Under the pieces are notes generated by a model. The model ran no database searches, was not told where the DNA came from, and was given only the letters and a program-made list of their open reading frames with translations. This document shows positions 541 through 63,102 of a stretch of 63,102 bases of DNA, piece after piece. Each line of letters begins with the position of its first letter. Positions within the stretch are counted from its first letter, which is position 1. Made by a program: the position numbers and the translations under genes. The stretch comes from a virus (Duplodnaviria; Caudoviricetes), in the IMG/VR virus record IMGVR_UViG_3300031952_000016, positions 1 through 63,102 of that record. The stretch is one strand, 5' to 3'.

Positions 541-1305
541 ATGAAAAACATATACGTATTACCAACATCACAACCAAGTAGGTTAGTTAAGCAAAAATAT
601 GATACACTTGATAGACTATGTTTAGCTGATATAGCCACAAAAAGAACTGAATATAAAAGATTTAACATCTACATCAATTCTGATGAAGAAATTAAAAAAG
701 GAGATTGGGTTTATTCAGAAGCAAGAAAAACTTTGTTTAAAGTAAAATCAATTTGTAATACTTCTGCTGGTTATCTTCTTATTGAAGATGATGTTATTAT
801 GCCTTTAGAAATTAATGAAGTTGATTGTAAAAAAATAATCCTAACAACAGACCAAGACTTAATCAAAAATGGTGTACAATCTATTGATGATGAGTTTTTA
901 CAATGGTTTGTAAAGAATCCAAGTTGTGAGAATGTTGAGGTTGAGGAAGAAGACTACTCTCAAAAATGTAGAGAATGTGGAGAAACTGTAAAGAGAGGTT
1001 ATAGTTGTAAAAAAGGATGTTTTATGAGAGCAGGTAATTTTATACCTACAGATGAAAATATAAAATACAAAATAATTATTCCAAAAGAAAAACCTAAACA
1101 AGAAACACTTGAAGAAGTTGCTGAAATATATGCAAGTCATTCATTAAAAGAAGAAAGACAAAAAGATTTAAATATGGGTTTTAAAGAAGGTGCTAAATGG
1201 CAACAAGAGAGAAGTTATAGTGAGGAGGATATGAAACAAGCATTTAGAGGATTTGCATCAGGAAAAAGTTTTAAAGACTGGTTTGAACAATTTAAAAACA
1301 AATAA
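541..1305 (+). CDS. mosaic hypothetical protein (MKNIxVLPT...SDEEIK...KQETLEE...WFEQFKNK type)
   Basis: ORF track; shares DNA blocks with ORFs at 62365-63102. Confidence 0.8.
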   Translation: MKNIYVLPTSQPSRLVKQKYDTLDRLCLADIATKRTEYKRFNIYINSDEEIKKGDWVYSEARKTLFKVKSICNTSAGYLLIEDDVIMPLEINEVDCKKIILTTDQDLIKNGVQSIDDEFLQWFVKNPSCENVEVEEEDYSQKCRECGETVKRGYSCKKGCFMRAGNFIPTDENIKYKIIIPKEKPKQETLEEVAEIYASHSLKEERQKDLNMGFKEGAKWQQERSYSEEDMKQAFRGFASGKSFKDWFEQFKNK

Positions 1306-3582: not shown

Positions 3583-3583
3583 T

Positions 3584-4725: not shown

Positions 4726-4755
4726 AAAGAGGAATATAATCGTTCCTCTTTTTTT
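4726..4755 (+). terminator. intrinsic terminator
   Basis: AAAGAGGAA/TTCCTCTTT stem followed by a T-run. Confidence 0.75.
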
Positions 4756-11247: not shown

Positions 11248-11736
11248 ATGCACGAAAAAGAAATAGAAGAACTCAAAAGAATTGTCAATGATATTTTTTT
11301 AGTAAATTTGGATTCAAAAAGCAGAGAAAGAAATATTGTGGATGCTAGAAAAGTTTACTCTAAGATGTTAAGAGACAGTGGATTTAGTTATGAAGCAATA
11401 GGGAAGACCATAGGTAAATGCCACGCTACGGTTGTGCATTACATTAATAATGTAGAATACATATTATCTTACGATAAGATACTTAGAGATAAGTACATTG
11501 CCTGTAAGAATGATTTTATTAAAAAAAGAGAATCCATTTCAGAACAGATTAAAAAAGATGCAGATGTATATGTAACGGTAATAAGATTGGCAAATGAATT
11601 ACAAGAAGCTATATCGGATAAAAATAGAGTTCTAAATGACTTTGTTGACTATCTTGAAAATTTTCAAAAAACAGCAGGTCATTTCCCAAACGCTTTAGAT
11701 TTAAGAAGACATATACTACCATTGTTTACCAAATAA
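11248..11736 (+). CDS. second DnaA C-terminal-like HTH protein
   Basis: SKSRERNIVDARK...SYEAIGKTIGKCHATVVH. Confidence 0.65.
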   Translation: MHEKEIEELKRIVNDIFLVNLDSKSRERNIVDARKVYSKMLRDSGFSYEAIGKTIGKCHATVVHYINNVEYILSYDKILRDKYIACKNDFIKKRESISEQIKKDADVYVTVIRLANELQEAISDKNRVLNDFVDYLENFQKTAGHFPNALDLRRHILPLFTK

Positions 11737-18300: not shown

Positions 18301-19754
18301 GTAACTACTTTGTCTTGTATTTTAAACATTCTTCCTTCGTAGTCATTGTTTATTACAATATCTGTAGCGTGTAACTGCTCAGGAGTCATTGTGTTTATCA
18401 GTTCGTCAATTTGTTGTACTGAAACTTTTTCTCCATTAACTTCATAAGAAGGTTTAGCAAGTCTTGCCTGAATAGTAGAACGAACACCTCCGGGTAATTC
18501 AGCAAGTCCTTCAAGTGCTATTTCAGATACATCCATATCCTGACCTATAGCTAAACGAGCTGCTGCCTCTCCTGCAGAACCTCCTAAAGATTCAACAGCC
18601 GAGCCTGCTGCGACTGATTTTGTAACTGCTTGTTTTGTAGCAGTTCCAACTGATGACTTAGCGGCTGACTTTGTAAGTATTTTAGCACCAACGCCTGAAG
18701 CAAGTTTACCTGTAAGAGCGTCTACAGTACCTATTATTATACCTCTTGCAATCGCTCTATTTCTAATTGATTGTAATTTTTCAGGGTCCTCAAGAATGGC
18801 TCTTACGTTTTCTTTATTAAGGTCTTTCCCTTCTAGTTCTTCGTTAAGTAATTCTCCAAATGTAGAGCCTGCCTCTACTACCGTACTTGCTAATCCAAAC
18901 GCATAAGGAACAGCGCTTACTGCACCTGCTAAAGCACCCGGAACAGCACCTGCTCCTGCAAATTCAGGAGTAGCTATTGCTCCTGTAACTGCACCTCTTG
19001 TGGCTCCTACTCCTATAGCAGCACCTCCTGCTTTTAAAGCATCGGTATTTGTAGCCATTGAAATTATAGAACTCGATAGTACTTCAGGGATAATACTTGG
19101 GTTATTGGCTAATCCTTTTATAACTCCCCAAAATCCTTTACCTTCTTCCTCGTATATTTTATTGTAGTCTTCCATCTCAGCAGAAGATTTTAATTGCTGA
19201 GCACTCTTATTTGCGTCTATAAATTTTTGTATCTGTTCAGGAGTGGCTTTATGCCCTTTTAATAGCAAATCGTCAGCTACTTGAGCAACCTCTCCTTGTC
19301 TATATCCTGAGGCAACACTACGTGCCATATCATCAACAAAATCTCCTATACCTAAAGGAACAATATTGTCAAATCCTCTTAATACATTACCAAAGCCTCC
19401 TGTAAAATAATCTTCTTCTTCGTCAATTGGCTCTTTCTTAGGAGTTATTTTCTTAGGAGGTAACTGCGTAGCCGATAAACCATCTTCCGCAGGTAATTCC
19501 GTAGTACCTTGTTGAGGAATTGGATTTTCTGACGACCCAACAGTATTTTTTTTTTCAGTAGTTAACGAACCGACACCCATAAGTGTTTTATACTCGTCAA
19601 TACTTTTTGAATATCCGTTAGTAACAAATACATCATACGAGTCTTTTAACGCTTGAGGATTTACGTTTATTAATTTCTTATATTCATCAAAGCTTTTAGT
19701 GTATCCATTTGATACAAATACGTCATACGAGTCTTTTAATGCTTGTTCGTTCAT
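12318..19754 (-). CDS. very large (2478 aa) putative internal virion/ejection protein
   Basis: Size, Ala/Gly-rich hydrophobic N-terminal region, last position in the structural operon. Confidence 0.65.
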   Translation of the reverse strand: MNEQALKDSYDVFVSNGYTKSFDEYKKLINVNPQALKDSYDVFVTNGYSKSIDEYKTLMGVGSLTTEKKNTVGSSENPIPQQGTTELPAEDGLSATQLPPKKITPKKEPIDEEEDYFTGGFGNVLRGFDNIVPLGIGDFVDDMARSVASGYRQGEVAQVADDLLLKGHKATPEQIQKFIDANKSAQQLKSSAEMEDYNKIYEEEGKGFWGVIKGLANNPSIIPEVLSSSIISMATNTDALKAGGAAIGVGATRGAVTGAIATPEFAGAGAVPGALAGAVSAVPYAFGLASTVVEAGSTFGELLNEELEGKDLNKENVRAILEDPEKLQSIRNRAIARGIIIGTVDALTGKLASGVGAKILTKSAAKSSVGTATKQAVTKSVAAGSAVESLGGSAGEAAARLAIGQDMDVSEIALEGLAELPGGVRSTIQARLAKPSYEVNGEKVSVQQIDELINTMTPEQLHATDIVINNDYEGRMFKIQDKVVTSAIKKEVRTANPNLNEPSLNAITELEKELKGLEGNKTQTGKDKASLLKGKIKDIQENQLADEVVSEVEGSFETPEISRLDDYNKRILEDEKSYDWEKELANEYFADKRKYIEKTLEIAKKALKENPESGFDKGSVEKSEKALKELDNLKTKQDAIQEQTANESVLRTEQPELGLQEMGEGDTQGGTITTSQPEEVKGTFLDNILGKIYEYTDPITGDKLKGNIFFDGQEVVFTDSNKEFSLGTVQDVLSDNSLNAKEVTPNFNISEDGGITILKEIDGVPEGKITPQGTGLKSIKTDKNGNVKRVVITDVNGVTHSIKGELANDLAEVMMFDLAKQGGLTKKINSDATARESFNRGVREANAKRKSKNTQGSVQGLDRGGRTGELTPAPETVVEVKPQEIDVVTEPAPTAETPAVEEVTPVIEEPTPVAETPVVEEVSPVVAKPLTDKVQQRIAQIDNAIEVLFETNGPDTSAWVNPASNYDLITLRRAKKAFESDAQSVKTFLNTRMGERYSEIEFKFEDLNEAPTPKPKTKPKAAPETKFEDKAKKIADEIMKLELPDWAVAEGAKGSAKQGVDSTVLKRAFADSVIKLGQLMDAGVEFSKALKEASKDLVGLLGQKNRDKIEDEILNKFNKGEKLSEQALKGYDKFSSVVDSAISGGKTIDDALNYMNRSDVYKRANDVQKELLVREVRKKFGLSQKSAPSVGKLFGTIKDIKKITMTEKELLIKQIRDKIRGAKDVIKTTKEISQQLVKEIKELESSGKITPTQSLNMISKFSKVNMLNEISVSNFVDYMAKVFADADYDNKINVAKGKLKTAKKNINTKIGIADGLIGPLQRLLSINPSLIPIKNLERYIELVDMFSERKAVLTLEEKSKIINDVNDILDEINNERSAVDELSQRFNYSENQVIEDGKLNYAATVKKMLKEGEITEEEAELMNKYKSEIIPQVEKTQATDAEIQKEKDDLLKEVGKLSINSDELPTRIERDAAKKLASLLKTSAVKELTNAQLKNLLKVIDNINNGYFAHSAQLIIEELNSNNNKKSLVSSVKRAVLLPLSKIYARVKSVITKKDYVLEMIRRNPLFNIDQIFSDFKTKDIFNSILEKAAEGEAKFTAELKAIQLKLSNAEEKIAKSHSLNPDATLMAKFKMMTYMVQLEHNSNPDSKQVNPAAEFLKATIKHIDEGKSQFEERDANMLQEILDKFAPNGEIDIDELYNSFNSAEKAGIKTIQEVNQSLTEKAEYTASVIRGQRINPLSNYIHLNVLSDTKPNDLQSGESFADQYNNSLKPSTKAKSLIERTGKVSPLNFDVFASVNKGAKFVLMDYNLTEPIRTARKTINKAITELENQGRISKDKRKIINAIKNSFEEAVEGLVQNSYMETSIGDDVIDYIKKQGYRSILAGTGRFAAEFLSNVGFVIISDPTTFAEGLKYTSTLMSPDAPLIMHNVNSKEINRIFPSDTLSGRLIDTNILSQANGIRGGKAKNKVVNKAQQIWNLTGKKYKNAVELTADVLITTPDKAIMRPIWFGAFAANFKKQTGQDIDFEKIAANDEAYMNQNIEAIDKAKDAADERSVITGASNNTFTGILKGTSKPNQSNFIKGFNNFNNFMTRFLIYEYTSARTGIMAAMGNGSLSKKQGIALLGAVTTRMTVYSLLSKALGSGLIGLLFGDDDEEEEKALDKSIGQALTSTFTSLLFNRDFGNATKMFINKGLEMFNEEYLQDLREGPYDPYKDAIQYTSIPIEKKGKQTGLYDYAESFSGAFGPAIKTTNLIIKTYSGGDKKEADAIQRQEDVKNIRIPLEVLGNAGFIPLYKDIRKTVMNNIYKDLKNPPAIEQKVDEKLNEKVEVLDKLLEKNSNPKLEEALETKRNELLTESPEEKAQLTAERKAEKEAKSQLLINPITNESYDNEEDLKKYNRRLWNKNFGPRSQWYKDHKYEKQANEKMNEEITKKEEKEYNYRKSTSDKSSYGSSYGSSYGSSSERYNSDGTVVRKSKTYK

Positions 19755-22804: not shown

Positions 22805-23632
22805 TTAAGGAAAACTTTTCATTACGTTAGATTCCGCTACAAACAACTCGATTTTACTGTTAAAAGCATTTTCAAGTGTAAATGTACAATAATGCCCCAA
22901 AACTCCGTGCGATTCTGCAACTGAATTTTTAATATATAAAAAGTAATTTGTATCAGTCGGAATTGGCGTTGTAGCAGGTGTAAGCATATTGTTGTTGATT
23001 ACAATTTGATTTATACCTGAAGGATAGTCTACGTTTACATCTGTAACAGGTCCTGCAAAAACAGGATTATTACCTGATAAAAAGTAAACATAATCTCCTA
23101 CACTTATGATATTCCCTATTGCTACAAGAGGAGATATGCTAAAGTTTATTACTGCACTGTTAGTACCTTTTCCTGTAACAGTTGTGCTACTACCTATACC
23201 ATTAACACTTCTAAGAGCAAGTTGTCCTAGTGAGGTATTTCTTACAAAAGCAAAGTACGAAGCTTCTTTTCTATCAAACCAATTCCCGTCTATAAACCCT
23301 GAGTATTGCAAGTCAGTTTCTAAAGTAACTCCCCAAGGAGCATCTCCTTCTAAGCTAATGGTCTTAAATAGCTTGTTCTCAATAGGAGAGGTATTAAATA
23401 CACTTTGAAGTCTTGAAGGAGTAAATGCATTTGGAGAAGGCACTATGTCGTCTTTTAAATCCCACCACGGTTGATAGAATGTATTACGAATTTCATTTAC
23501 ATTATGTCTGTAAAGATTTCCTCCTTTGAAGGTATAGAAAAAATTGTTCATTCCAATCATCCAATCAGGTTGATAAGAGTAAAAAGATACCCAACCGGCA
23601 ACTCCTTCGCTATATGATAATGTGTAATTCAT
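22805..23632 (-). CDS. tail structural protein (nozzle C-terminal-like)
   Basis: TLSYSE..GWVSFYSY.PDWM pattern; follows the large tail protein. Confidence 0.6.
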   Translation of the reverse strand: MNYTLSYSEGVAGWVSFYSYQPDWMIGMNNFFYTFKGGNLYRHNVNEIRNTFYQPWWDLKDDIVPSPNAFTPSRLQSVFNTSPIENKLFKTISLEGDAPWGVTLETDLQYSGFIDGNWFDRKEASYFAFVRNTSLGQLALRSVNGIGSSTTVTGKGTNSAVINFSISPLVAIGNIISVGDYVYFLSGNNPVFAGPVTDVNVDYPSGINQIVINNNMLTPATTPIPTDTNYFLYIKNSVAESHGVLGHYCTFTLENAFNSKIELFVAESNVMKSFP

Positions 23633-23634
23633 AA

Positions 23635-26600
23635 TTATAATTCAGTTGGTAAACAAACTCGTATAGCATCCCATCCTGTACCTACACTGCCTGTTATTCT
23701 TATATTAACTTCATTAGATGCTATATAATCTGCAGCACTATATATCCACCAAATTCTTTGTTGGTAATCAGTTGTAAGAGGTAAGGTCGTTATTCCTGTA
23801 GCAGCTGTAAATTGAGTCATTCTAGTTGGAACAGTTCCTTTATCGGTCCCTATAAATTGGTCTGTTGCATTAGCTTGCAATACAGTAGGAACAACATCGG
23901 AAGGTCTAGTTCCGTAGTCATTATCAAAAGGACCTGAATTATTAGCAGCGGTCATACTACTTGTTGATTTCTTGATATACGAAGTACCTACCTTATGTAT
24001 TATCTCTAACTTATCAGGCACTGCAGCAGGTTTGAAATCAAATATAATAACACCTCCTGAAGGATTGTCTAAAATAACAGTAAGGTCATATATACCTGTT
24101 TCTCCTTCAGTTTCAACAGGCACGCCACAAGGCACTCCACAAGTAGGACAATTTTGTTTAGGTAGTAATACTCCATCTACAAGTTGTCTTACAATACCTC
24201 CTAATGAATAGAATCCATTTGCTGCAAATACAGTTAAATCGCTATTAGTAAATATTGATGTAGCCGTAGCGAACGGAGCGTTTAAATAGTAATTATCATC
24301 CGTACAATCACAACAAGCATCTTCTTTACTTGTAAGTGCGTAACATAATTCAGTAAAAAGAGACGTTCTTAAATCCCATAATAAATAAAGATATTCTCCA
24401 TCTACAACATCAGGAGTTATAAAGCTTGAGTAATACAAAGGAGAGCTACCTAAAATTGGAGTAGCTGTTATTGATTCATTGATTAAATCTTGAATCTCAA
24501 TACTATTGTTTTCATATAAAACAGAGCTTCTAAGGTATCTAAATTTATTTTTCTCAGGATTAAATACAAAGTCATCAGGGTTTATTCTGTTTGTAGACAA
24601 TATCATCGTGCTTCCTGCAGGAGGATAAGCTCCTTGACCTGCAAATCCTGAAGAAATATTGTACCTAGACACTAATGGAGTTTCTGTTCCACTATCGAAT
24701 AAAACAAGATTAGATAATAATGGACCTATAAAATTATCATTAGTATATCTATACTGAGTATGTATTGTTTTCCCTGAATCTGCGTTATCTGTTAAGACAA
24801 CTTCCACAATTTTTACCTCTTCAGAAATAGGACAATCAGATGTTACAGAAACAACCATATCTCCTTTATATGTTATTGTTATTTCTGCAGTACTAACAGA
24901 TATATTATTTTTGTTAAAAGATATAGTTCCATTTGAAGCAGTTTCTATAGAATCTACAACTACTCCATTATAGTTTACGCTTATCTGTATAGAGGCTCCT
25001 TCTTGAATACTTGTAAATACCCAATTTATATCTGAAATTCCTACAATAGCTCCTAAATTAACGCAGTATATCTCTTGTTTTTCTTCTATCAAGTCTTCTG
25101 ATGATAAAGTAAATGTTTGACTAATACCACATCCTATACATTGAGGGGTTGATGGTAATGGTTGGTCATTCATAGATAGTACATACTCGTTCATATAAGG
25201 GTCGTAACCTCCTAGTTTTTGATAATTGAACGAAGAGTTAAATTCATCTCTAAACCAAGTTCTCATATTTTGATTAGAGATAGCTACCAATTCTTCATTC
25301 TGAGTATCTCCTCCTTTTAATTGGAGAACAACTCCACGTTTTACATCTGTAAAGAACCTATCAAATCCCCATTGAACATAACTTTCAGGATTGAAACTAA
25401 TACCATACTTTTCAGTACGTGCTATTTGCGTTCCTAAGACCTCAGGAGTGGCTGTAATTATACCTCCGGCACTTGCATCAGACAATAAATTTTTCTCCGC
25501 TAAAACGTAAGATATTTTATCTTCTTGTAAAACCAACACATCTGTATTTCTTGCATCTAAAAGTTGTATCTCTCCGAATGAAGACTCGCATTTTTTAAAG
25601 TTTAATAGTCCTGAGTTAAATTGGTTTAATCTATTAATATTTGATTCATTATTATAAACTCCACTATATGTTATATCTGACATTCTGTGAGCTTTTTTAT
25701 AATCTTGAGCTGAAACAGTAGTTACTCTTTCTCCTAGATTGAAACTTCTTCCAACTATTGAGTCTCTAATTTTATAGCTTTCTGCTCCGTTACCAAAAGC
25801 AAAGCAGTTAAAAAATTCAGTATCTACAACACCGTTTATCCCTGCGCTTATATCTTGATTCGTAACATTACCTAAGTGGTTTCCATCTTCATCAATAGCG
25901 AACGACAATTCATTTTCAAAGAAAATATCAGGTAAAGCATCTTGAGGTTCTGTCTCAAAAATAATTGTATTTAAAGCTCTTAGTATCTGAATAGTAACAT
26001 TTAAACGATACTCTCTACGGCTAGGTCTTGAGAATCCTCTACACGCTTTACCTATTGTCAACTGAAGTATTGTTTCGTTTGTTATATCGTCAGTATAAAA
26101 CTGAAGATATTGTGGACCAAAACTCTCTATATCTAGTATTCCTTTTGTAGGAATATATACCAAACTAGTTACATCATCCTTTGGCGTTCCTGTACTTAAT
26201 AAAGCACCTATGTTATCGCCATTCCACCAATCTTCAAAACTATCATAATCAGCAGAAGATTGAATCTCTCTTTGAAATAAATACCCTAGAGGGTCGCATT
26301 TTCTTCCTGAAAAACCTGCTCTATTCCAATTAAAATCTAAAGTGATTATACTTCCTGCAGGAATTGAGTAGTCTTTATACTCCCAAAAAGGGTGTAAATC
26401 GTCAAAACCTGCTCCTTTAAATTCATTAACGCCATACTTCATCATTCCGTAATTACCATCAAAAGTATAATCGTATTCGGCTCCAAGATTTACAAAAGCA
26501 TCAGGAGCTACAACTGCTAAAAAACTATTTGGGTTTATCTTAACGTATAGACCTGCAGGAGGAGTTATATCTCCAATAACAGTAATATCTCCTGATGCTT

Positions 26601-28698
26601 TTGCTTCTTTTGCTAAGATAGTTGCATAAGCACAATTTTGTCTAGGACCACCTGTATCTGCTTTAACAATTAACCTATCTCCTGTTTCTACTTTTCTAAT
26701 ATTTTCTCCTTCTAAATAAAACCAATTCTCGTTGGTTTCAGAATCTGTAAAAAATAAATTACAGTAGATTGTTTCGTAATTCTCTTCATCAGGTTTGATG
26801 ACAAACTTATATCTCTTTGCAAATTTAGGAGCCACTTGGCTAAAAGGTATAGTTACTCTAATACCGTTTTTAGTATCAGAATCATCGCACGAAGTAAATA
26901 CTGCATTGTTTTGACTTACCAAAGCGGTTGTAGACCTATTAAATTCATCCATATAAACAATGCCTATCTCATAACCTCTATTACTGTGTAGGCTTTTTGG
27001 ATTTCCTATTTCTTGAAAAACAGCACTAGAAAAAAGAACTTTGTAATACTCATATATAGTTACCGTAGGAGTTACAATGTCATCTACATATTTTGCTGCA
27101 CATAATTGTAATCCTATTTCAGTACTTGCCGGAGTAGTAACAATTCTTATTGGTTGATTAATTGCATCTATACCACTTTCTACTTTTATTAATAAATCTA
27201 AGGCACTAGGAATATTACAATTTACTCTGTCAGTAAAAGTAATCCCATCGCAAGCAGTAGCCATAGGCTCTATATTTGTAACACTTCCAACAACATCTTG
27301 AAATTCTACGCTAGTGGCTAGTTCATAAACAGAAGAGTAATTTCTATTTAAAAAGAAATCAAATGTAACTTGTGTGTCTCCTGTTTCTTGTGTAGGCTCA
27401 GGAGTTCCTGAAAATCTATCGTGAGTAAAAGTAAAATCTAAATTAATAAAAGCACCCTTTACAAGGTTTAATCCTACTAAATCAATATACACTATAGAAT
27501 CAGGTATAGTTAATGCTGTATCTATAGTGTAGTTTCCACTTCCTGTTCTATCAGTAACTGCGGATTCTCCTATATCTTCTGATATTATTTCAGGTCTATA
27601 TTCAATTTTTGTAGCATATCCAAATTTATCAATTAAATCATACCCTTCTACATAGTTCCCGTACATTAATCTATTACCCATAATCGTTTGAGCTTTAGCT
27701 ATTAATGGTACGTTATCGTATAATCTCAATATCTCAGCCTCAGTTAATATAGTAAAAATCTTACTGTTGTTAAATGAAAAACTTTGTATGCTGTTATCAG
27801 AAAAGCCTGCTTCTTTCTTATCTATTTTTTGTATGACTTTTATTATATTATTGTTTGCTTGCTTAAAAAGTAAGTCAATTCCTACAACAAGAGGTCCTCC
27901 TGTATTGTATTTAACAATAGCTGCGTTGAAAAAATTACTCATCCCTTCATTTAGCATACTATTTACGCTAAACTGAAATGAATTAGGAGCAAACGCAGGT
28001 GCTGACCATTGTGATGTAGCTGAATACTCTCCATCTTCATATTTATATCTATAAGCAAAACATATAAATCTAGTATCTAAGTAATTCTCTTGACCACTCG
28101 TGGTTATAGGAGTTACTTCAGGAGACTCTGTAGGCGGTTTCTTTATAACGAGAATTGCTTCAGGATTTAATACGTCAATATCTCCAACAGGATTAGGATA
28201 ATTTTTATCTATGTTTATAAAACGAGGAGGATTATAATTATCAGTCCAAAACAAAAGATTATCAATTAAATTGATTCCTGTAATAAGATAAGAAGGATTA
28301 AAATTTAATGTAGTATCTACTCCATCTCCATTATCTATACTGATAACGTGATACGTTAGTATATCTGTAAGCACGTTGTAAGACACAACTAAATCAAGTT
28401 TCCCTGTGTCTCCAACAGTAAATTCAGGGTCGTGAACAAACCAATATACTGTTTCGTTAGCACTATCTTCAACAGCACCAATGCATCTTGCATTTATACT
28501 TAATGGAGTTCCATCTAAATAGGTCAATATGGTTAATGATGAATTTCCTTTAGTGTTAGTAATAACGCCTACTTCTGATTTTTCAGTAGACCCCATTCTA
28601 ATATTCATAGCATCGACATATTCTCCATCAGGAAGTAGTCGTTGGTCTACGACTTTGTTCATTCTTCCTGCTATAAAATTCCTTGTTACTTTTGCCAT
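23635..28698 (-). CDS. tail stabilisation/nozzle (muzzle)-like protein
   Basis: NFIAGRMNKVVDQRLLPDGEYVDAMNI, LFWTDNYNPPRFIN, FAYRYKYEDGEYS, GNRLMYGNY. Confidence 0.7.
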   Translation of the reverse strand: MAKVTRNFIAGRMNKVVDQRLLPDGEYVDAMNIRMGSTEKSEVGVITNTKGNSSLTILTYLDGTPLSINARCIGAVEDSANETVYWFVHDPEFTVGDTGKLDLVVSYNVLTDILTYHVISIDNGDGVDTTLNFNPSYLITGINLIDNLLFWTDNYNPPRFINIDKNYPNPVGDIDVLNPEAILVIKKPPTESPEVTPITTSGQENYLDTRFICFAYRYKYEDGEYSATSQWSAPAFAPNSFQFSVNSMLNEGMSNFFNAAIVKYNTGGPLVVGIDLLFKQANNNIIKVIQKIDKKEAGFSDNSIQSFSFNNSKIFTILTEAEILRLYDNVPLIAKAQTIMGNRLMYGNYVEGYDLIDKFGYATKIEYRPEIISEDIGESAVTDRTGSGNYTIDTALTIPDSIVYIDLVGLNLVKGAFINLDFTFTHDRFSGTPEPTQETGDTQVTFDFFLNRNYSSVYELATSVEFQDVVGSVTNIEPMATACDGITFTDRVNCNIPSALDLLIKVESGIDAINQPIRIVTTPASTEIGLQLCAAKYVDDIVTPTVTIYEYYKVLFSSAVFQEIGNPKSLHSNRGYEIGIVYMDEFNRSTTALVSQNNAVFTSCDDSDTKNGIRVTIPFSQVAPKFAKRYKFVIKPDEENYETIYCNLFFTDSETNENWFYLEGENIRKVETGDRLIVKADTGGPRQNCAYATILAKEAKASGDITVIGDITPPAGLYVKINPNSFLAVVAPDAFVNLGAEYDYTFDGNYGMMKYGVNEFKGAGFDDLHPFWEYKDYSIPAGSIITLDFNWNRAGFSGRKCDPLGYLFQREIQSSADYDSFEDWWNGDNIGALLSTGTPKDDVTSLVYIPTKGILDIESFGPQYLQFYTDDITNETILQLTIGKACRGFSRPSRREYRLNVTIQILRALNTIIFETEPQDALPDIFFENELSFAIDEDGNHLGNVTNQDISAGINGVVDTEFFNCFAFGNGAESYKIRDSIVGRSFNLGERVTTVSAQDYKKAHRMSDITYSGVYNNESNINRLNQFNSGLLNFKKCESSFGEIQLLDARNTDVLVLQEDKISYVLAEKNLLSDASAGGIITATPEVLGTQIARTEKYGISFNPESYVQWGFDRFFTDVKRGVVLQLKGGDTQNEELVAISNQNMRTWFRDEFNSSFNYQKLGGYDPYMNEYVLSMNDQPLPSTPQCIGCGISQTFTLSSEDLIEEKQEIYCVNLGAIVGISDINWVFTSIQEGASIQISVNYNGVVVDSIETASNGTISFNKNNISVSTAEITITYKGDMVVSVTSDCPISEEVKIVEVVLTDNADSGKTIHTQYRYTNDNFIGPLLSNLVLFDSGTETPLVSRYNISSGFAGQGAYPPAGSTMILSTNRINPDDFVFNPEKNKFRYLRSSVLYENNSIEIQDLINESITATPILGSSPLYYSSFITPDVVDGEYLYLLWDLRTSLFTELCYALTSKEDACCDCTDDNYYLNAPFATATSIFTNSDLTVFAANGFYSLGGIVRQLVDGVLLPKQNCPTCGVPCGVPVETEGETGIYDLTVILDNPSGGVIIFDFKPAAVPDKLEIIHKVGTSYIKKSTSSMTAANNSGPFDNDYGTRPSDVVPTVLQANATDQFIGTDKGTVPTRMTQFTAATGITTLPLTTDYQQRIWWIYSAADYIASNEVNIRITGSVGTGWDAIRVCLPTEL

Positions 28699-44683: not shown

Positions 44684-46051
44684 TTAATTATATATTTCTA
44701 TTTTAAATTGACTATTATTTAAAAGACCATCCTCGAAACTAAAAGTTGCTGTATTATATGTTCTTAATATAAACGTATTAGCAGATGTAGTATTTGCAGT
44801 ACAAGTACATCCTTGTTTAGCATTTAAAGTAGCAAAAAAAGTTTTAATAGTAAATTCACTAGTAGTAATAGTTCCAATATATTGCCCGTCTGCAAATCTT
44901 GACCACACAATAGGGTCTGTTATATCGTTTTTATATTCCAAATTTACTATTGGTGCATTTCCTCCTGTTTGACTTAATGTAACTGCATAAATTTTTTGAG
45001 TTTTTTGGTCTACATAAGTTTTGACAGCATTTTGAGAAGGATATAGAATATCACTTGTTCCTAAAGCTACATCGGTAGATTTATTAGCTATGTTTTCAGT
45101 CGTATAACCCTCTAAAATTTCTGCTTTCCAATATCCACCAAAACCAACATAAGTAAATCTATATACTTCATTTGTAGCTAATGTTACAGACGATACAAAT
45201 GTTTGAAATTTAACAAACATAAAATTTGTCCCTGCTGAATTTGCTCTAATTTCAATATTATTTGCTGTTGATAAAACAATTATTTCTTTTCCATTTTCAG
45301 TTGTTGTTGGTAAAAAAGCTTTTCCACCACCAAAAGAACAACTATTTATATCATAAGGCAATACTTGAAAAGTGCCGTTTAGAGTTATAGTACCACTTGT
45401 TTTTGGACTGCCACCACTAACAACTAAATCTCCACTACCTAAAATATCGCTTCCATTAATAGTTTTAATATTAGTGCCACTTACTAATGTGTTTTGTTTT
45501 AAATCTAAAACAGCTTTTAATTTTACAGGAGTTACAATATTTGTACCATTAATACCTTGCCCTACTTCAACAGTTGAAGCTAAAGAAGCAATTCCTTTAA
45601 CTCCCTCTTGAGCATTAGGGACTATGCCTACTCCTCCTTGAGGTCCTGTAGGTCCTTGCACTCCTTGAGGACCTTGCGCTCCTTGAGAGGCTAATAATGC
45701 CCAATTAGTTGGGTCTGCATTTGGAGGCGTAGTCCCTGTTACTGCAGATATACAAAACCAAGATGCCCCATTATATGAAACAGAATCATTAGCAACATAA
45801 GAAGTTCCTGATACCCAAATCCCCTCCCAAGTTAATCCTGCAGGACCTACAGCTCCATTAGCTCCTGTAGGTCCTTGCACTCCTTGAGGACCTATAGGTC
45901 CTTGAGTTCCAATATTTTGAGTACCTAAAAAAGTTATAAAATCTCCAATCAAATAATTTTTTGTAGCTAACGAACTATCAGCATCCGTACCTATTAATTT
46001 GTCCATTAAAGATATGTTTGAATCTTTAGGATAACTACTAATAATCGCCAT
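44684..46051 (-). CDS. tail fibre protein with collagen-like repeats
   Basis: G-X-Y runs (GPQGVQGPTG) flanking a WEGIWVSGTSY..DSVSYNGASW module. Confidence 0.75.
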   Translation of the reverse strand: MAIISSYPKDSNISLMDKLIGTDADSSLATKNYLIGDFITFLGTQNIGTQGPIGPQGVQGPTGANGAVGPAGLTWEGIWVSGTSYVANDSVSYNGASWFCISAVTGTTPPNADPTNWALLASQGAQGPQGVQGPTGPQGGVGIVPNAQEGVKGIASLASTVEVGQGINGTNIVTPVKLKAVLDLKQNTLVSGTNIKTINGSDILGSGDLVVSGGSPKTSGTITLNGTFQVLPYDINSCSFGGGKAFLPTTTENGKEIIVLSTANNIEIRANSAGTNFMFVKFQTFVSSVTLATNEVYRFTYVGFGGYWKAEILEGYTTENIANKSTDVALGTSDILYPSQNAVKTYVDQKTQKIYAVTLSQTGGNAPIVNLEYKNDITDPIVWSRFADGQYIGTITTSEFTIKTFFATLNAKQGCTCTANTTSANTFILRTYNTATFSFEDGLLNNSQFKIEIYN

Positions 46052-51553: not shown

Positions 51554-51994
51554 ATGAAATCAGATAGAGATGACTACCTAAAATATTACAGGGTAATACG
51601 ACAGTTTATAAAAATTAAATACGAGATAACTCAGGCTGACTTAGATATGCTTTTGTTCTTGTATTCAGAGAAGTACTTCGGAAGGGATAAGTTTGATGAA
51701 TATACCAAACTGCTAGGATGGGATGTAGTGCGCTTTTTTAGACTCCAACAAGAAGGTTGGATTGTCAAATTTAGAAATCGAGTTGGTAAGAGAAAAGCTT
51801 TGTACAAACTTACCATAAAATCTGAACGTATGATTCAGTCGATATATAGAAAACTAAGTGGGGAAGAAATCCCCACTAGTTTATCCCAAAATAAAATGTT
51901 TTTAAAAAATGCATCATACCTAGATAAAGCGTATCGTGATATGATTATTCAGATGAATGAAGTTATAAGACAACAACGACATCTCTCTCAGTAA
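51554..51994 (+). CDS. MarR-like winged-helix regulator
   Basis: ITQADLDMLLFL...RLQQEGWI...LYKLTIK. Confidence 0.6.
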   Translation: MKSDRDDYLKYYRVIRQFIKIKYEITQADLDMLLFLYSEKYFGRDKFDEYTKLLGWDVVRFFRLQQEGWIVKFRNRVGKRKALYKLTIKSERMIQSIYRKLSGEEIPTSLSQNKMFLKNASYLDKAYRDMIIQMNEVIRQQRHLSQ

Positions 51995-52226
51995 TAATCG
52001 TGTACTGCTTTTCATCAATTAGCATTGTAAATCCGTGTGCCTTGTCATAGTAGATGTCATCATCTTTCTTTATGTTAGGCACATCTGTTCCTGCTTCAAT
52101 AACTAAACCACGTTTGTATCGCATTTGGTTTACATCTTCTCCCGATAGAATCAATCCTGACTCTGTCTTCAACTCTTCATCAACGGTCTTGATGACTATG
52201 TATTTTCCTATGGGCTTTAATGACAT
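51963..52226 (-). CDS. groES: co-chaperonin GroES
   Basis: LKPIGKYIVI, KTESGLIL mobile loop, GLVIEAG, ERDVVVV. Confidence 0.9.
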   Translation of the reverse strand: MSLKPIGKYIVIKTVDEELKTESGLILSGEDVNQMRYKRGLVIEAGTDVPNIKKDDDIYYDKAHGFTMLIDEKQYTIITERDVVVVL

Positions 52227-52897
52227 AATTTTTTTATTTTTAATTGTTTATTTAATATTTTACTGTTTACTTTTTTAGACCTTCCGTATAGGTTATTTGA
52301 TATTGCTGTCTCTAAACATCCTAATTTTTTTGCTGCTTCTCTTACAGAAGAAAAATTTTCAATAAATTCAGAAGTATAATAGTCATAACAAGAAATAGGA
52401 ACGGATGTTATTATTTTTGACTTATTTGACAATCTCATTTTAGCTTTAACTTGCTCAGGTATCTTTGTTCCTGTTCTTGCTTTGGCTATATTTTCTCTAT
52501 GCTCTTTAGATTTTATCTTTCCTTTATGAGATAAAGATATTTTATTTTTCCATTCTTCAGTTCTTATAACAGATTTTAAAGATTCTATTTTCTTTTTTAA
52601 AATGCTAAAAGAAACTGCTTCGACAGTAATTCCTCCTTTTGTTTGATTAATAAGTTGGCCATTTTTTAAATCTATTCTTCCGTATTTAGTAATAAGTTCT
52701 ATCTCTAACTCAAATGCTTGCTCTTGAGTTAATCCATCTTTATATATTTCAATTATATAACCATATTTACTTACTACTCTATTCCACCATTCAGGTCTTT
52801 GCTTACAATAGGCTCTTTTTAAATCCCCCATACCTACATAGAAAACAGAATTATCTGTTTTCTTTTTATGTAGATATACAACTTTGTTATTTTTCAT
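52217..52897 (-). mobile_element. free-standing homing endonuclease (GIY-YIG-like with NUMOD3/NUMOD1-like repeats)
   Basis: VYLH...FYVGMG..KRA, E..LI..YG, LINQTKGG; RTEEWKNKISLSHKG repeats; FSSVREAAKKLG. Confidence 0.8.
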
Positions 52898-52915
52898 TTA
52901 ACAAAAATAGTAATT

Positions 52916-52942
52916 TTATTTGTATTTCCCGATTGGTTTCAT
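52916..52942 (-). pseudogene. groES: relic of the original groES 5' end
   Basis: ATG AAA CCA ATC GGG AAA TAC AAA TAA = MKPIGKYK*, matching the GroES N-terminus. Confidence 0.75.
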
Positions 52943-52946
52943 ATCC

Positions 52947-54554
52947 TTACTCGTTTGATTGTTCGTAGCTTCTCGCCATTGTGATTATCGCATCTGTGCT
53001 TAGGATTGTTACCGCTACACTCACTGCGTTTTGCAATGCTGAACGGGTTACTTTCAACGGGTCTATTACTCCCATTTTTACCAAGTCTCCAAACTCTCTT
53101 GTTTTTAGATTGTACCCGTGACCCTGAGCTACACCATCTGAATAGATGTCTGATGCTCTTAGTCCTGCGTTAGCAAGTATCTGTAAGAACGGAGCCATAA
53201 GTGCTACGCTTAAAATATTTATTGCCGCATTGTACTCCTCACTCTTGTTATCGTCTAAATGTAACGCTGCACTCTCCTCAAGTAATGCTTTCCCTGCTCC
53301 GGGCACGATACCTTCCTCTAGTGCTGACCTTACCGCACATACCGCATCATCAACTCTATCAAATAACTCTTTCTGCTCTAGGTCTGTCTGACCTCCTACG
53401 AATATCACTCCGATACCTCCTGTAAGGGAAGCGATACGCTCTAAGATAAAGTCTTTCTCGTGTTTCTTAGTTGCGTTCTTATGCGCATCCCACAACTGAG
53501 ACACTCTTTCGTCAATTGCTTTTTGGTCTAACCTCAAGTCTGACTTGATGATAACAGTTTTGTCCTTGCTCACAATTATCTTAGCTGCGTGCCCTAGGTC
53601 TCCAAAGTTGATGATACTCAAATCATCTCCCGTTTTCTCGCTGAAGTAAGTCGCTCCAACGCTAATGGCAATGTCATACATCAACTCGTGTTGCTTGTAC
53701 CCAAAACTAGGTGGTGCAACTGCACATACCTTGATGTTCCCCTTTACAACATTTGCCGCCAAACTATTGATTAGGTTCTGACCACAAGGAGATATTATCA
53801 ATAACTTTTTACCCTCACTAACAATTGGCTTAAGCACGTTCTCAATCTGAAGGATATTAGTAATCTCCATATCAGCAACCAACACCATAACATCCTCAAA
53901 TATGCACTCATCTTTTTTCTGCTCGTTTATAAACATCGGACTCAAATACCCTCTGTCAAATTTCAACCCTAAAGTGGTCTCCGCATACGTCTCGTCAGTC
54001 TGACTTTTCTCCACCGTTACAATACCGGTCTTACCAACATCTTTGTACACCTCAGAGATTATCTTCCCTATCTCTCTATCGTTGTTTGCAGATATGCTCG
54101 CTACATCCACCAACATAGAGCTAGTAACTCTCTTGCTCTTTTTGCGCAACCTATCCACCACCTTGTCGCTTATCTCCACCATACTCCTTAAGACCTCAGT
54201 CCTGTTTAGATTTGGCGTAATATGCTCAAGTCCTCCCAATACCAACCCCTCTGTAAGCACAATAGCCGTAGTGGTCCCATCTCCTGCGGCAGTAGCGGTA
54301 CGCTCAGCAGCCTCCTTCATCATCTTAACCGCAAGGTTCTCCGAAGGGTCTAACAAGTCAATAGCCTTAGCCACTGTTACACCATCTTTAGTAACCGTGA
54401 TGCCGTGAGTGTGTGTAGGGCTCTCTATCAAGACCGGATTACCTCCCGGACCTAACGTAGCTTTTACAGCTTTTGACATCTTTACCACTCCATTTACTAA
54501 TTTTTTCCTTCCTGTGTCCCCAAAACACAAATCTTTAGGCGAATACTCTAGCAT
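52947..54554 (-). CDS. groEL: chaperonin GroEL
   Basis: TLGPGG, TKDGVTVA, AGDGTTTA, FDRGYLSP, EEGIVPG, GVIDPLKVTRSALQNA. Confidence 0.95.
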   Translation of the reverse strand: MLEYSPKDLCFGDTGRKKLVNGVVKMSKAVKATLGPGGNPVLIESPTHTHGITVTKDGVTVAKAIDLLDPSENLAVKMMKEAAERTATAAGDGTTTAIVLTEGLVLGGLEHITPNLNRTEVLRSMVEISDKVVDRLRKKSKRVTSSMLVDVASISANNDREIGKIISEVYKDVGKTGIVTVEKSQTDETYAETTLGLKFDRGYLSPMFINEQKKDECIFEDVMVLVADMEITNILQIENVLKPIVSEGKKLLIISPCGQNLINSLAANVVKGNIKVCAVAPPSFGYKQHELMYDIAISVGATYFSEKTGDDLSIINFGDLGHAAKIIVSKDKTVIIKSDLRLDQKAIDERVSQLWDAHKNATKKHEKDFILERIASLTGGIGVIFVGGQTDLEQKELFDRVDDAVCAVRSALEEGIVPGAGKALLEESAALHLDDNKSEEYNAAINILSVALMAPFLQILANAGLRASDIYSDGVAQGHGYNLKTREFGDLVKMGVIDPLKVTRSALQNAVSVAVTILSTDAIITMARSYEQSNE

Positions 54555-60303: not shown

Positions 60304-61113
60304 ATGTGCATAGCAATTTTAAACACGAAAAAAGCAGGTAGATTACCTAAGAATCAAATCAAAAACTCTTGGGATAACAATGATATGGGAGCAGGTCTCC
60401 TATGGAACAAAGACGGTAAGTTAAATGTATTCAAGTCGTATGACTATGATGACTACATAGACAAGTACAATGCCCTTAGAGATGACAATACCATCAACAG
60501 TATAGTGTTACATTTCAGGATAGCCACTAGTGGTTACAATGGAGAGCATAACCTTCATCCCTTTCTTGTCAATGACAACGTAGGATTTGTACACAACGGA
60601 GTCATTAGTGGACTAGGTAACAAGACCTTCTCAGACACGTATGAATTTAATGATATGCTTAAAAAGTTTAAGCACGATTTCTTATCTTGCGATATGAGTA
60701 AGTTCTTCATATCAGAGTACATAGGGTACAGCAAGCTAGTGTTCTTAGATAACAAAGACAAGCATACCATTATCAATGAGGAGTTAGGTAAGTGGTCCAA
60801 TGGTAATTGGTACTCCAATGATTCCTACAAAGAGTACAAGCCCTATGTTTATTATGGGAATCAAAAGGTTGCTAAGACGGATGTTGCAGGCAGTAAGACC
60901 TACCCTCACTATGATTACAGCAAAGATGCGTGGGATGATTTAGACGAGGGAATAGAGTATGACGAGTGGGATGTGTATGACTACCTATGTAGCGTGTACG
61001 GACTAAACCCTGAGGCAGACGATTCAATAGATGAGTTAGAGACGTATATGACGCTGAACAACGTAGACAACATCATAGATTTGTACAAAATCATAGGCGG
61101 GGAAATGGAATAA
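60304..61113 (+). CDS. class II glutamine amidotransferase
   Basis: N-terminal Cys (MCIAI), HFRIATSG, HPF, FVHNG, SDT. Confidence 0.85.
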   Translation: MCIAILNTKKAGRLPKNQIKNSWDNNDMGAGLLWNKDGKLNVFKSYDYDDYIDKYNALRDDNTINSIVLHFRIATSGYNGEHNLHPFLVNDNVGFVHNGVISGLGNKTFSDTYEFNDMLKKFKHDFLSCDMSKFFISEYIGYSKLVFLDNKDKHTIINEELGKWSNGNWYSNDSYKEYKPYVYYGNQKVAKTDVAGSKTYPHYDYSKDAWDDLDEGIEYDEWDVYDYLCSVYGLNPEADDSIDELETYMTLNNVDNIIDLYKIIGGEME

Positions 61114-61387
61114 ACTATCATCATTATGGAAAACGTAAACAGATTTTACGAGTGGATGCTTAAAGTGAAGAGCATCCACTTATCGGACAACGAGCGTATG
61201 ACTAGAGCATACGAAATAGTATATCAAAACAGTTAGAAATTATGGTAAAAGTGTATTTTGAAACAGATGGCTATGTAGAATTAGTAGCTATATTTGCAAC
61301 GGAGAGCAACTATATGGTTTGCTTGCCTATATTAGAATTAGAGGCTATTAAACAAGGGTTTATGCGTGTAACCGAATCAATTGAAGT

Positions 61388-61612
61388 ATGAAAGTATATA
61401 GAGTAAACACAACAGCGTACAAGGAGGAAGATTTCTACCTCCTTACAGACCTATCAGAGGAAGAGATTGCAGATGTTATAACACCAATAGTTGTCCGAGA
61501 GCGAGATGGGTATGAGGAATATGATAATGAATTATTAGTAGATGCACTAAAGAAAAAGTATCCAAGAAAAAAGGTTGAGCTCTATTCAGAGTTTGACCTT
61601 ATTACAATCTAA
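61388..61612 (+). CDS. hypothetical protein
   Basis: ORF track. Confidence 0.7.
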   Translation: MKVYRVNTTAYKEEDFYLLTDLSEEEIADVITPIVVRERDGYEEYDNELLVDALKKKYPRKKVELYSEFDLITI

Positions 61613-61756
61613 GTGGAATGACGGTTAAAAATCCTTACTTGTCGGTAATGTAGGCAGTTGTAATGCCATTGGTTAATTCAGTACGTCATTCAGCATCAAT
61701 AGATGCTCACTCATATAGCTGAAATTACAATAAGACTGACTGATGGAAAGACATCA
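61613..61756 (+). ncRNA. candidate pseudoknotted RNA
   Basis: GAATGACG/CGTCATTC helix; GGCA-GTTGTAA-TGCC loop complementary to TTACAA; terminal TGATG-GAAAGA-CATCA hairpin. Confidence 0.5.
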
Positions 61757-61758
61757 AT

Positions 61759-61834
61759 GGGGGATTAGCTCAATTGGTAGAGCCGTGAGCATAGGCATAA
61801 CGAGGTTACAGGTTCGAGTCCTGTATTCCCCACT
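61759..61834 (+). tRNA. tRNA with a non-canonical anticodon arm (identity undetermined)
   Basis: GGGGGAT/ATTCCCC acceptor, GCTC-AATTGGTA-GAGC D arm, ACAGG-TTCGAGT-CCTGT T arm; anticodon arm malformed; no CCA. Confidence 0.7.
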
Positions 61835-61852
61835 AATTTTAAATTTAATCAA

Positions 61853-62368
61853 ATGAAAACAGTAAGAGAAAAAGTAATTGAACAGATTAGACTGCAGGAG
61901 AAAATGCAAAGTCTAGCAAAAGTAAACCTAGTTACTTGTGGTAATTGTGGTGCTACATTATTGCACGAGCTGAATGAAGAGCAAATTGACTGCTTTGCGT
62001 GTGGTAATATGATTGACCAATCAGACTGCCCGGACTATTGGTATAGTGGACTAGAGAACTCAGAAGAGTACAATAGAGAGGAGCCTACTCTTTATGGAAA
62101 GTTAATTGACATAGAGGTTAATGAAGCGGTAGAACTCAGCACTATCATCAAACAAGAAAACATTGAGAACGCAAAAAAACTACTTAAAAGTGAGGGCTAC
62201 TATATAGACAGCCTTTGGACGACAGATGACGTTACAGAGAACTACAATTGCACAGAGGAACAGGCTCAAGAGGTGCTTGATAGCGCATTAAATAACGAGG
62301 CAACTATGCAACAGATATGGGATGCCATCAAGTGTAGTGCAGAGGATTTAAAACTAAAAGAGATATGA
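61853..62368 (+). CDS. zinc-ribbon hypothetical protein
   Basis: CGNC...CFAC. Confidence 0.7.
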   Translation: MKTVREKVIEQIRLQEKMQSLAKVNLVTCGNCGATLLHELNEEQIDCFACGNMIDQSDCPDYWYSGLENSEEYNREEPTLYGKLIDIEVNEAVELSTIIKQENIENAKKLLKSEGYYIDSLWTTDDVTENYNCTEEQAQEVLDSALNNEATMQQIWDAIKCSAEDLKLKEI

Positions 62369-62622
62369 AACAAGAAACACTTGAAGAATTTATTTTTAAA
62401 GTTCCTTTTGATTATAACATCAAACCTAAAGAGGTTATTAATATGTGTATGAAAGAACAAGAAAATATTATTCTTACTTGGAGATTAGGTTATTTTATAG
62501 ATATGATTAATTCTTTACCTGATGACACAGAAAAGAATAGAATATTAAAATCTGTTTTTGATAACAGAGATGGAGAATTATTATTAGAATCTTATAAATC
62601 AATGAAATCACATTATGAATAA
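62365..62622 (+). CDS. hypothetical protein starting MKQETLEE
   Basis: ORF track. Confidence 0.7.
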   Translation: MKQETLEEFIFKVPFDYNIKPKEVINMCMKEQENIILTWRLGYFIDMINSLPDDTEKNRILKSVFDNRDGELLLESYKSMKSHYE

Positions 62623-62863
62623 ACAAGAAACACTTGAAGAAGCTGCTAAAGAATTTTTTAGAAAATTTAAACATACACACAGTCCTGATAATTATTATTT
62701 AGCTTTAGTTGAATTTGCTAAATGGCAACAAGAAAGAAGTTATAGTGAGGAAGATTTAAAAGAAGCATTTAAACAATCTCGATAATATTTTATATTCCAA
62801 AAAGATATGCCACCATTATATAAAAATTTTGAAGAATGGTTTGAACAATTTAAAAACAAATAA
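62615..62863 (+). pseudogene. KQETLEE...WFEQFKNK type gene interrupted by an in-frame TAA
   Basis: TAA at 62783-62785; the same frame continues to WFEQFKNK* at 62863. Confidence 0.7.
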
Positions 62864-62866
62864 ATT

Positions 62867-63102
62867 ATGAAAAACATACACGTATTACCAACTTTACAAG
62901 CAAGTGAATACTTCATTAACAAAGAAGGTATTCTATCAGAAAGTTATTCACTAAAAAGAGGGGGTGCAGTACATTTCTACATCACTTCTGATGAAGAAAT
63001 TAAAGAAGGTGATTGGTTTATTACAGACAAAAACACAATTTGTAAATGTGTTAGAGTAGATTGGAAATATGCTTACTCTATTGAAGCAGGAAGTAGAAGT
63101 AA
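62867..63102 (+). CDS. partial paralog of 541..1305, truncated by the window end
   Basis: MKNIHVLPT...FYITSDEEIKEGDWF; open to the end of the window. Confidence 0.75.
   Translation, partial: MKNIHVLPTLQASEYFINKEGILSESYSLKRGGAVHFYITSDEEIKEGDWFITDKNTICKCVRVDWKYAYSIEAGSRS

Follow-up and report, generated by a model that had tools for sequence, protein, structure and literature searches.

Conserved anchors and exchangeable segments in a large, unnamed family of phage proteins, most likely reshuffled by ordinary homologous recombination

Mosaic genes shuffled at conserved motifs are already known in a few phage proteins, above all in gp38, and here we describe a protein family of related design, encoded at both ends of a 63,102-bp viral contig (Duplodnaviria, Caudoviricetes; IMG/VR record IMGVR_UViG_3300031952_000016). 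The entire linear record, rated complete by CheckV, is the window of this study. The gp38 adhesins of T-even phages are small proteins with conserved glycine-rich motifs (GRMs) as their structural core, alternating with hypervariable segments (HVSs) that are exchanged between related phages (PMC3157838). The family described here also alternates conserved motifs, which we call anchors, with hypervariable and exchangeable segments, and gp38 is its closest analogue in design. Segment swapping by recombination between the conserved motifs of gp38 was reportedly described in earlier work from the same group. The differences are nevertheless clear: scans of the window proteins against Pfam, PHROG and NCBIfam returned no gp38 family; our family sits in the replication, recombination and small-gene arm (+ strand), away from the tail-fibre locus and the structural block; and it has six anchors, swaps of whole modules, stand-alone modules and tandem arrays, on contigs of 6–270 kb. 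Most likely, ordinary homologous recombination has reshuffled its segments among hundreds of viruses, with no machinery devoted to diversity involved.

The closest likenesses in mechanism are to two other systems. The PeSLs of T4-type phages (PMC2839356) are short repeated promoter/stem-loop motifs that lie among accessory genes and act as crossover sites in modular shuffling, and the tail anchor (A6) of our family similarly stands at gene boundaries beside varied downstream genes. PeSLs, however, are intergenic promoter and terminator units, whereas the anchors are coding, five of the six lie inside the gene, and no terminator-like hairpin was found at them. Rad52-like phage recombinases (Red-beta, Erf, Sak) have been put forward as a source of phage mosaicism through relaxed homologous recombination, and the same source (PMC3945230) gives a minimal efficient pairing segment of 23–27 bp for Red-beta and 31–34 bp for RecA. 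The window encodes a Sak-family protein, and exact matches within anchor A2 (median 23 nucleotides, nt) fall within the Red-beta range; the published exchanges, in contrast, are of ~100 bp and longer and concern temperate phages and prophages, while here they would be many and within one gene of 250 codons, the activity of Sak being predicted. The family is thus closest in mechanism to PeSL shuffling and to Rad52-like relaxed recombination, and is a member of neither, nor of gp38.

Conserved flanks around variable cassettes, with partial copies that start from a conserved junction, are also features of Neisseria pilE/pilS, Borrelia vlsE and the orphan CdiA-CT/Rhs modules. The modules of our family differ in having start codons, no toxin or immunity domains were found in them and a single expression site is not evident; partial copies share segments with full-length genes in three loci (L018, L059 and L082; loci and proteins are cited by our own L and P numbers), yet carry start codons. 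Diversity-generating retroelements and invertase-driven shufflons likewise produce targeted variation of a phage or host protein. No reverse transcriptase domain was found, however, at E ≤ 1e-5 in 68 open reading frames (ORFs) or at E ≤ 0.1 in eight more (together 76 of the 85 in the window, nine small ORFs lying outside the scan), there is no template/variable repeat pair, and copies differ by replacement of whole segments, not by adenine substitutions. Nor do these 76 ORFs contain an invertase or site-specific recombinase domain; all copies of the repeated blocks are direct and on the + strand, and the only inverted repeats are weak and unrelated. An earlier reading of the letters of the window (the original prediction) had proposed an intragenic combinatorial scheme, with constant anchors and exchangeable inserts, that generates protein variants without a reverse transcriptase or invertase, and the latter part is borne out within the ORFs scanned.

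A search with gene A, a full-length member of 254 amino acids (aa) near the window start (Table 1), scored 8000 candidates, of which 7851 proteins match at E ≤ 1e-3; no Pfam domain is recorded for any of them. A profile scan of IMG/VR confirmed at least 511 loci (511 of the 598 pattern matches encode relatives). Only 12 loci occur in a genome collection of 185,579 species, all in metagenome bins; we take these to be phage contigs, and prophage carriage is unsupported. Among 50,697 GenBank phage records, tblastn of gene A gave no match at E ≤ 1e-2, and blastn against cultured phages found only 45–49 nt of the A5 anchor, in 68 records of Flavobacterium phage elemo, where this stretch belongs to a stand-alone C-module gene. 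The only match to a described protein family is PHROG 15656 (function unknown), which covers part of the N-terminal region only (gene A, E 9.2e-9, residues 33–111; gene C, E 1.3e-5). All Pfam and NCBIfam matches fell below curated cut-offs, among them DUF7180, which was matched by gene B only at 16.4 bits against a cut-off of 27, and none of 17 C-terminal modules shared any family. A literature search that left supplements aside, made for six of the family's peptide motifs and by topic, found no paper with the motifs and no description of the family. The repeated blocks are best explained as the anchors of a very large, unnamed and uncharacterised family of accessory phage proteins, which freshwater phages of Bacteroidota type carry in their replication and small-gene arm.

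An alignment of 60 proteins shows six conserved stretches, namely A0 (MKNIHLLPTDKPSRL), A1 (NIYITSDEEIKEGDW), A2 (KKIILTTDQDLIKDGVQAIDDEFLEWFVKNPSCExVEV), A3/A4 (YKIIIPKEEPKQETLEEAAE), A5 (GAKWQQERMYSEEE) and A6 (WFEQFKKK-stop), with five variable stretches, V1–V5, between them and optional extra modules between repeated EEPKQ linkers. The order of a full-length protein is best explained as a beta-rich N-terminal region with a putative SH3/KOW-like barrel and often a zinc-ribbon insert, an EEPKQ-type linker, and a small helical C-terminal module whose last residues are WFEQFKKK. Separate small genes, too, encode C-terminal modules, and their start coincides exactly with the linker. In this explanation the variable stretches and the extra modules come in discrete types, shuffled many times over. 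In gene A, V3 holds a zinc-ribbon-like CxxC...C insert. Its AlphaFold2 model (predicted local distance difference test, pLDDT, 83.7) has a beta-rich N-terminal and a helical C-terminal part, and residues 47–100 or thereabouts show only a middling resemblance to SH3/KOW/Tudor-like barrels in VIA-align (best Z 6.5, root-mean-square deviation 2.3 Å over 50 residues, where Z values under 8 are common for unrelated models). Foldseek found no match to this model in the PDB at E ≤ 1e-3; matches in BFVD were to uncharacterised phage proteins only, and those in the ESM Atlas to clusters of "hypothetical protein" only, with scores of 0.85 or less. The model of the C-terminal module is weak (pLDDT 70.3, predicted template-modelling score 0.37). 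Three proteins (P0022, P0035 and P0054) carry two complete N-terminal units in tandem in one ORF, the arrangement that unequal crossing-over of neighbouring genes should give.

The segments between the anchors reassort almost independently, and a single congruent history is absent. Across 142 proteins with all six anchors (10011 pairs), median identity is 0.73–0.79 in A0–A2 and 0.17–0.19 in V1–V5. Where two proteins share a V1 type (at least 70% identical; 154 pairs), V2 is shared in only 5% and is less than 30% identical in 90%; V2 and V3 reassort much as V1 does, and V4 and V5 are more linked, being shared together in 38–42% of pairs. Gene A itself is a five-way mosaic, each of its segments having its best match (87–100% identical) in a different protein that is only 4–27% identical to gene A in the other four: V1 in P0051 (92%, tied with P0027 and P0018), V2 in P0004 (100%), V3 in P0002 (100%), V4 in P0093 (100%, tied with P0058) and V5 in an L032 gene (87%). 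The list of 120 top proteins is biased towards those that share something with the query, and many recurrent types do not involve gene A. Furthermore, shared DNA mostly ends in an anchor: among 66 matches of 93% identity or more and 60 nt or longer, all between genes that otherwise differ, an anchor holds the left end in 58 of 65 cases and the right end in 49 of 63. Most high-identity matches consist of anchor A2 alone, and several run from an anchor through a variable segment into the next anchor. Within the anchors, 20 polymorphisms show a mean r2 of 0.01–0.02 beyond 15 nt, with all four allele combinations in 93–100% of site pairs.

Whole modules are exchanged as well. An exhaustive HMMER search with the 85-aa module at the window end (21 representatives) found it as the C-terminus of seven family proteins of 241–389 aa (P0122, P0124–P0127, P0130 and P0133), with 88–96% identity in six and 69% in P0133; the junction reads KQET[LI]EE or DETLEE in six of the seven and only LLEE in P0133. 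The same module thus sits on unlike N-terminal parts, because the representatives stand for different 50%-identity clusters. KQETLEE is thus where exchangeable C-terminal modules start, and this accounts for its internal place in gene A and its N-terminal place in two small ORFs. In one further protein, P0128, an N-terminal part unlike the family is joined to family linker pieces and the 85-aa module.

Ordinary paralogy would have an old multi-domain family keep its essential motifs under purifying selection while the loops diverged by point mutation and indels. The anchors do coincide with predicted core strands and helices, and stand-alone and fused forms are common in any domain family; yet the variable segments occur as discrete types, 70–100% identical between proteins that are unrelated in the adjoining segments, a C-terminal module 92–96% identical is carried by proteins of different 50%-identity clusters, and the synonymous sites of the anchors are far from saturated (see below). 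Because of this independent reassortment, the unsaturated synonymous sites and the five-way mosaic of gene A, paralogy is contradicted by the data: we reject simple divergence of paralogues as highly improbable, and it would be revived only if the mosaics were assembly artefacts.

The anchors are also conserved at the nucleotide level. A codon alignment was made from 118 unique family pieces from 104 loci and the window (the best 80 of at least 511 loci were taken), and the expected same-codon frequency was derived from pooled codon usage. At identical residues in different loci the same codon is used with a frequency of 0.814 in anchors (0.524 expected), as opposed to 0.626 in variable columns (0.510 expected); for residues of four- and sixfold degeneracy the values are 0.754 (0.362 expected) and 0.460 (0.358 expected). 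Four residues, H5, D10, F103 and E117, are exceptions with same-codon use at or below expectation. The median length of the longest exact match in A2 is 23 nt, compared with 12 nt in a back-translated control. Of 1950 gene pairs from different loci, 83% have 23 nt or more of exact identity in one or more anchors and 49% in at least two; in a control back-translated by codon usage the corresponding figures are 8% and 0.4%. The original prediction had named saturated synonymous sites and one congruent phylogeny of the inserts as what would speak for ordinary paralogy; neither was found. Its constant anchors and exchangeable inserts are clearly real, as seen in the near-independent reassortment, the gene A mosaic and the module swap at KQETLEE.

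Conservation of this kind could in principle come from overlapping DNA or RNA signals (translation start regions, promoters), recombination being uninvolved, and the tail anchor offers the best case. The tail TGGTTTGAACAATTTAAAAAGAAATAA is nearly invariant, and an ATG follows 1–3 nt after its stop in 64 of 95 cases; the genes after it are mostly from outside the family (65 vs 11, judged crudely from their first three residues). Additionally, TTTAAAA lies 7–28 nt upstream of 14 of the 78 starts in the window (Table 1), with about 0.9 expected in random windows, and may be a translation-start or gene-junction signal. Because the tail lies 1–3 nt before the next start codon and TTTAAAA is enriched upstream of starts, the tail may additionally help translation of the next gene, and a tail-like copy is found between ORFs at 426–449. 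Such signals, however, could explain A6 only: the gene-internal anchors A1, A2, A3/A4 and A5 have the same synonymous excess (0.78–0.86 vs 0.51–0.55), no terminator-like hairpin was found in 1–2700 and the single one in 61000–63102 lies outside the anchors, and sigma-70-like sites are dispersed and form no pattern with respect to the anchors. As a general account of the nucleotide conservation, overlapping signals are extremely unlikely.

Two to five family pieces are present in 25 of 105 sources (three loci were fetched twice, so that distinct contigs are slightly fewer). In L018, positions 2334–6013 hold a run of full-length genes, stand-alone modules and one copy interrupted in frame by a stop codon. 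In both L018 and L059, a full-length gene and a stand-alone module are 97% identical over A5-V5-A6, with different sequence (V4) upstream; in L082 the identity over the same stretch is 90.5%. In four metagenome runs, analysed as contigs and not as reads, summed contig depth peaks over the anchor-bearing stretch (283 vs about 14–18 in run X1), many contigs join successive anchors with other sequence between them, and the genes after the tail differ.

Such arrays could be read as a programmed cassette system, a putative phage counterpart of pilE/pilS or vlsE in which, during infection, stand-alone modules and truncated copies would donate segments one at a time to a full-length expression gene, and selection for this purpose would keep the anchors identical. 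The stand-alone modules start exactly at anchor A4; full-length genes, modules and copies with in-frame stops are mixed in arrays (the window, L013/L014 and L018); neighbouring module and gene share A5-V5-A6 and differ in V4, as just described; anchor conservation exceeds what the protein needs; and recombination genes are nearby. On the other hand, the stand-alone modules possess an ATG and the spacing of expressed genes, 80 of the 105 sources have only one family piece in the stretch fetched, no dedicated enzyme recurs beside the family, and in the contigs analysed no within-sample variant joining the window's own copies was seen. Such a system is in our view quite unlikely. Quite unlikely, too, is a broader reading, a combinatorial diversification encoded by the virus itself and independent of reverse transcriptase and invertase, in which anchors would be kept as recombination sites, arrays would act as cassette libraries, and Sak and its PDDEXK-like neighbour would reshuffle them during infection, yielding variant host-interaction proteins at a rate far above general phage recombination. 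Of the intragenic scheme in the original prediction, the anchors with exchangeable inserts stand, and nothing shows an active, programmed scheme inside this genome, where the copies share anchors only. The evidence fits homologous recombination on an evolutionary and population scale, feasible by general phage recombination functions.

We therefore consider it probable that homologous recombination at the anchors, within tandem arrays and between phages, shuffled the segments, and we infer that the events took place in the anchors themselves. Crossovers or gene conversion would begin in an anchor, and the partners would be tandem paralogues of a single genome as well as co-infecting phages. 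Catalysis could come from phage functions that tolerate short homologies, such as Sak and the adjoining PDDEXK-like protein encoded 1.6 kb downstream of gene A, a plausible role for this pair at the anchors.

Several points weigh against this interpretation. No recombination event was directly observed, the data being contigs only, and apart from one stand-alone C-module in the cultured Flavobacterium phage elemo every family sequence was assembled from a metagenome. Where anchors are shared, an assembler can pass from one copy into another, the window contig itself breaks inside a family gene, and P0128 may be a chimeric contig or gene call, a warning on assembly at the anchors. The three copies in the window have only anchors in common and no variable segment. 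Part of the excess synonymous identity could arise because the genes sampled descend from a recent common ancestor, or from other constraints on the DNA, which for the tail could be a role in starting translation of the next gene, and the near-zero linkage, calculated from only 20 sites, could owe something to recurrent mutation.

If short-read assemblers had jumped between co-occurring members at the anchors, much of the reassortment would consist of chimeric contigs, and this is the chief technical caveat. Exact anchor matches of 23–33 nt are indeed common, the window contig and several related ones end inside family genes, Logan contigs are fragmented at the locus, and P0128 looks chimeric. 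Nevertheless, thirteen genes or arrays were recovered identically in two or three separately named metagenomes, which argues against a pure artefact and does not exclude one; the gene A mosaic partners P0004, P0018 and P0059 stand for clusters present on 2–6 contigs; and segments in common are as a rule not identical but a few substitutions apart. Typical exact matches should also be shorter than the larger assembler k-mers. Assembly artefact as the main source of the mosaics is thus very unlikely.

In the window itself, all five repeated blocks were located where the original prediction had placed them. The 21-mer AAACAAGAAACACTTGAAGAA (KQETLEE) is exact at 1096, 62368 and 62621 (three matches, a number reached in 0 of 100 shuffles), internal in gene A (541..1305) and directly after the ATG in ORFs 62365..62622 and 62615..62785. 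The AKWQQERSYSEED block at 1191–1230 is identical in 38 of 40 positions to 62716–62755. The 24-mer of the WFEQFKNK-stop tail, TTTGAACAATTTAAAAACAAATAA, is exact at 2–25, 1282–1305 and 62840–62863, with a copy of three mismatches at 426–449 (four matches; 0 in shuffles), and another degenerate copy lies at about 522–537 (repeat families D15 and D16). The MKNIxVLPT and YIxSDEEIKxGDW blocks are common to the genes starting at 541 and 62867 (D15, 90% of 58 nt; D19, 87% of 52 nt). Between the blocks the genes are dissimilar, as predicted, with 28 identical of 60 aligned residues in gene A vs gene C and 38 of 68 in gene A vs gene B; at identical residues the same codon is used in 33 of 36 cases (A vs B) and 21 of 26 (A vs C), where pooled codon usage predicts ~0.52. 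The ORF of the 85-aa module has only the seven KQETLEE codons in common with genes A and B. This local pattern is in part plain domain architecture: two stand-alone C-terminal modules that start from the linker, a nonsense allele in one of them, and a further copy truncated where the contig ends.

That nonsense allele is in gene B, which has an in-frame TAA at 62783–62785, after which the frame is open to WFEQFKNK-stop. In three independent family copies, the stretch from the ERSYSEE anchor to the EQFKKK tail holds one in-frame stop, past which the frame is open to the tail (TAA in the window, TGA at 4727 of L013/L014 and TAA at 4108 of L018). Because the stop of gene B is polymorphic, with C at 62783 (CAA) in one contig of run X2 and TAA in one contig of run X3, we read it as a nonsense allele and not as recoding; stop-codon recoding as the cause of the in-frame stops was rejected, the stops being of different kinds (TAA, TGA, TAA) and that of the window allelic with CAA.

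Between the two family tails near the window start lie three small hydrophobic ORFs (30–537), the first and third ending in FKKE-stop or FKKK-stop; the second is followed, after its stop, by the tail-like copy at 426–449. All three have the look of insertions into tail junctions. At the other end, gene C is 100% identical over 127 nt (62975–63102) to a gene at the start of another viral contig, L006. The copies at the window start and end are at the ends of the contig, which starts and ends inside family genes (1–25 and 62867–63102); joined end to start, the contig would stay in frame. Logan contigs reach 39–106 nt past the window end, so the record was probably broken inside a family gene by the repeats and does not have a true linear end there.

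Table 1. Features of the window and their positions; (-) marks a start on the minus strand.
Feature	Position	Strand	Detail
Anchor A6 (tail) of a family gene cut by the contig start	1..25	+	last codons ..FEQFKNK-stop; exact 24-mer copy
Three small ORFs	30-221, 223-420, 451-537	+	each after a tail-like TTTAAAAA..AATAAG motif
Gene A, full-length family member, 254 aa	541..1305	+	hidden Markov model (HMM) match E 5e-101
Gene A anchors	A0 541-585; A1 661-708; A2 826-942; A3/A4 1066-1125; A5 1180-1230; A6 1276-1302 plus stop	+	
Stand-alone alternative C-terminal module, 85 aa	62365..62622	+	starts M-KQETLEE (anchor A4)
Gene B, stand-alone canonical C-terminal module	62615..62863	+	A4 62618-62650; A5 62705-62755; A6 about 62837-62863
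Gene C, second member of full-length type, N-terminal part up to the contig end	62867..63102	+	A0 62867-62911; A1 62969-63016; HMM match E 1.7e-15
Starts with TTTAAAA upstream	30, 223, 451, 541, 1307, 9820, 41100(-), 50952(-), 56824, 57008, 57817, 58176, 62365, 62867		
Sak single-strand annealing protein	2932-3582	+	Pfam PF06378, E 7e-45
PDDEXK-like DUF3799 protein, adjoining Sak	3584-4315	+	Pfam PF12684, E 7.6e-22
Replication and small genes	both window ends	+	
Structural block	12318-54554	-	middle of window
2478-aa ORF and two crAss-type muzzle proteins	12318-19754 and 22805-28698	-	no Pfam match for the ORF
Direct repeats rich in GGN-complement triplets	45627-45906	-	within ORF 44684-46051, protein with CBM_5_12 domain
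Phage-encoded GroES (Cpn10) and GroEL (Cpn60) pair	51963-54554	-	
Two small proteins with DnaA C-terminal helix-turn-helix domain	2610-2912 and 11248-11736		
TTAAATCAAA-type leader	upstream of 2610, 2932, 11032, 61853	+	recurring
TTAAATCAAA-type leader	upstream of 30667, 32953, 46079, 52947	-	recurring

The proteins of the window also include an M15 peptidase, an SNF2-type helicase and a BT4734-like primase-type protein, and there is one tRNA-Leu. Together with the muzzle proteins, the 2478-aa ORF points to a crAss-like podovirus architecture. The repeats in ORF 44684–46051 look collagen-like (Gly-X-Y), and its product is probably a fibre protein. The TTAAATCAAA-type leader is often preceded by TAnnTTTG, which we take to be the Bacteroidota -7 promoter consensus and which would fit a Bacteroidota host. 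The nearest cultured relatives for any part of the studied region are Flavobacterium phages, and the DNA is found in sediment and freshwater metagenomes.

In freshwater phage metagenomes few unnamed protein families are as abundant as this one, which does not consist of tail-fibre proteins. With six anchors and at least five independently reassorting segments in about 250 codons, with anchor synonymous sites conserved across more than a hundred contigs, and with exact matches of about the length that a Rad52-like recombinase needs, it offers a natural test bed for the part played by short homologies in phage gene evolution and for selection that keeps recombination sites within coding sequence. 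V1–V5 are most likely specificity surfaces with a role in phage–host conflict, as their variability, their genomic position and their restriction to phages suggest; the variable segments would then set binding specificity in some such conflict, and it is this extreme variability that marks the protein as a likely player in it.

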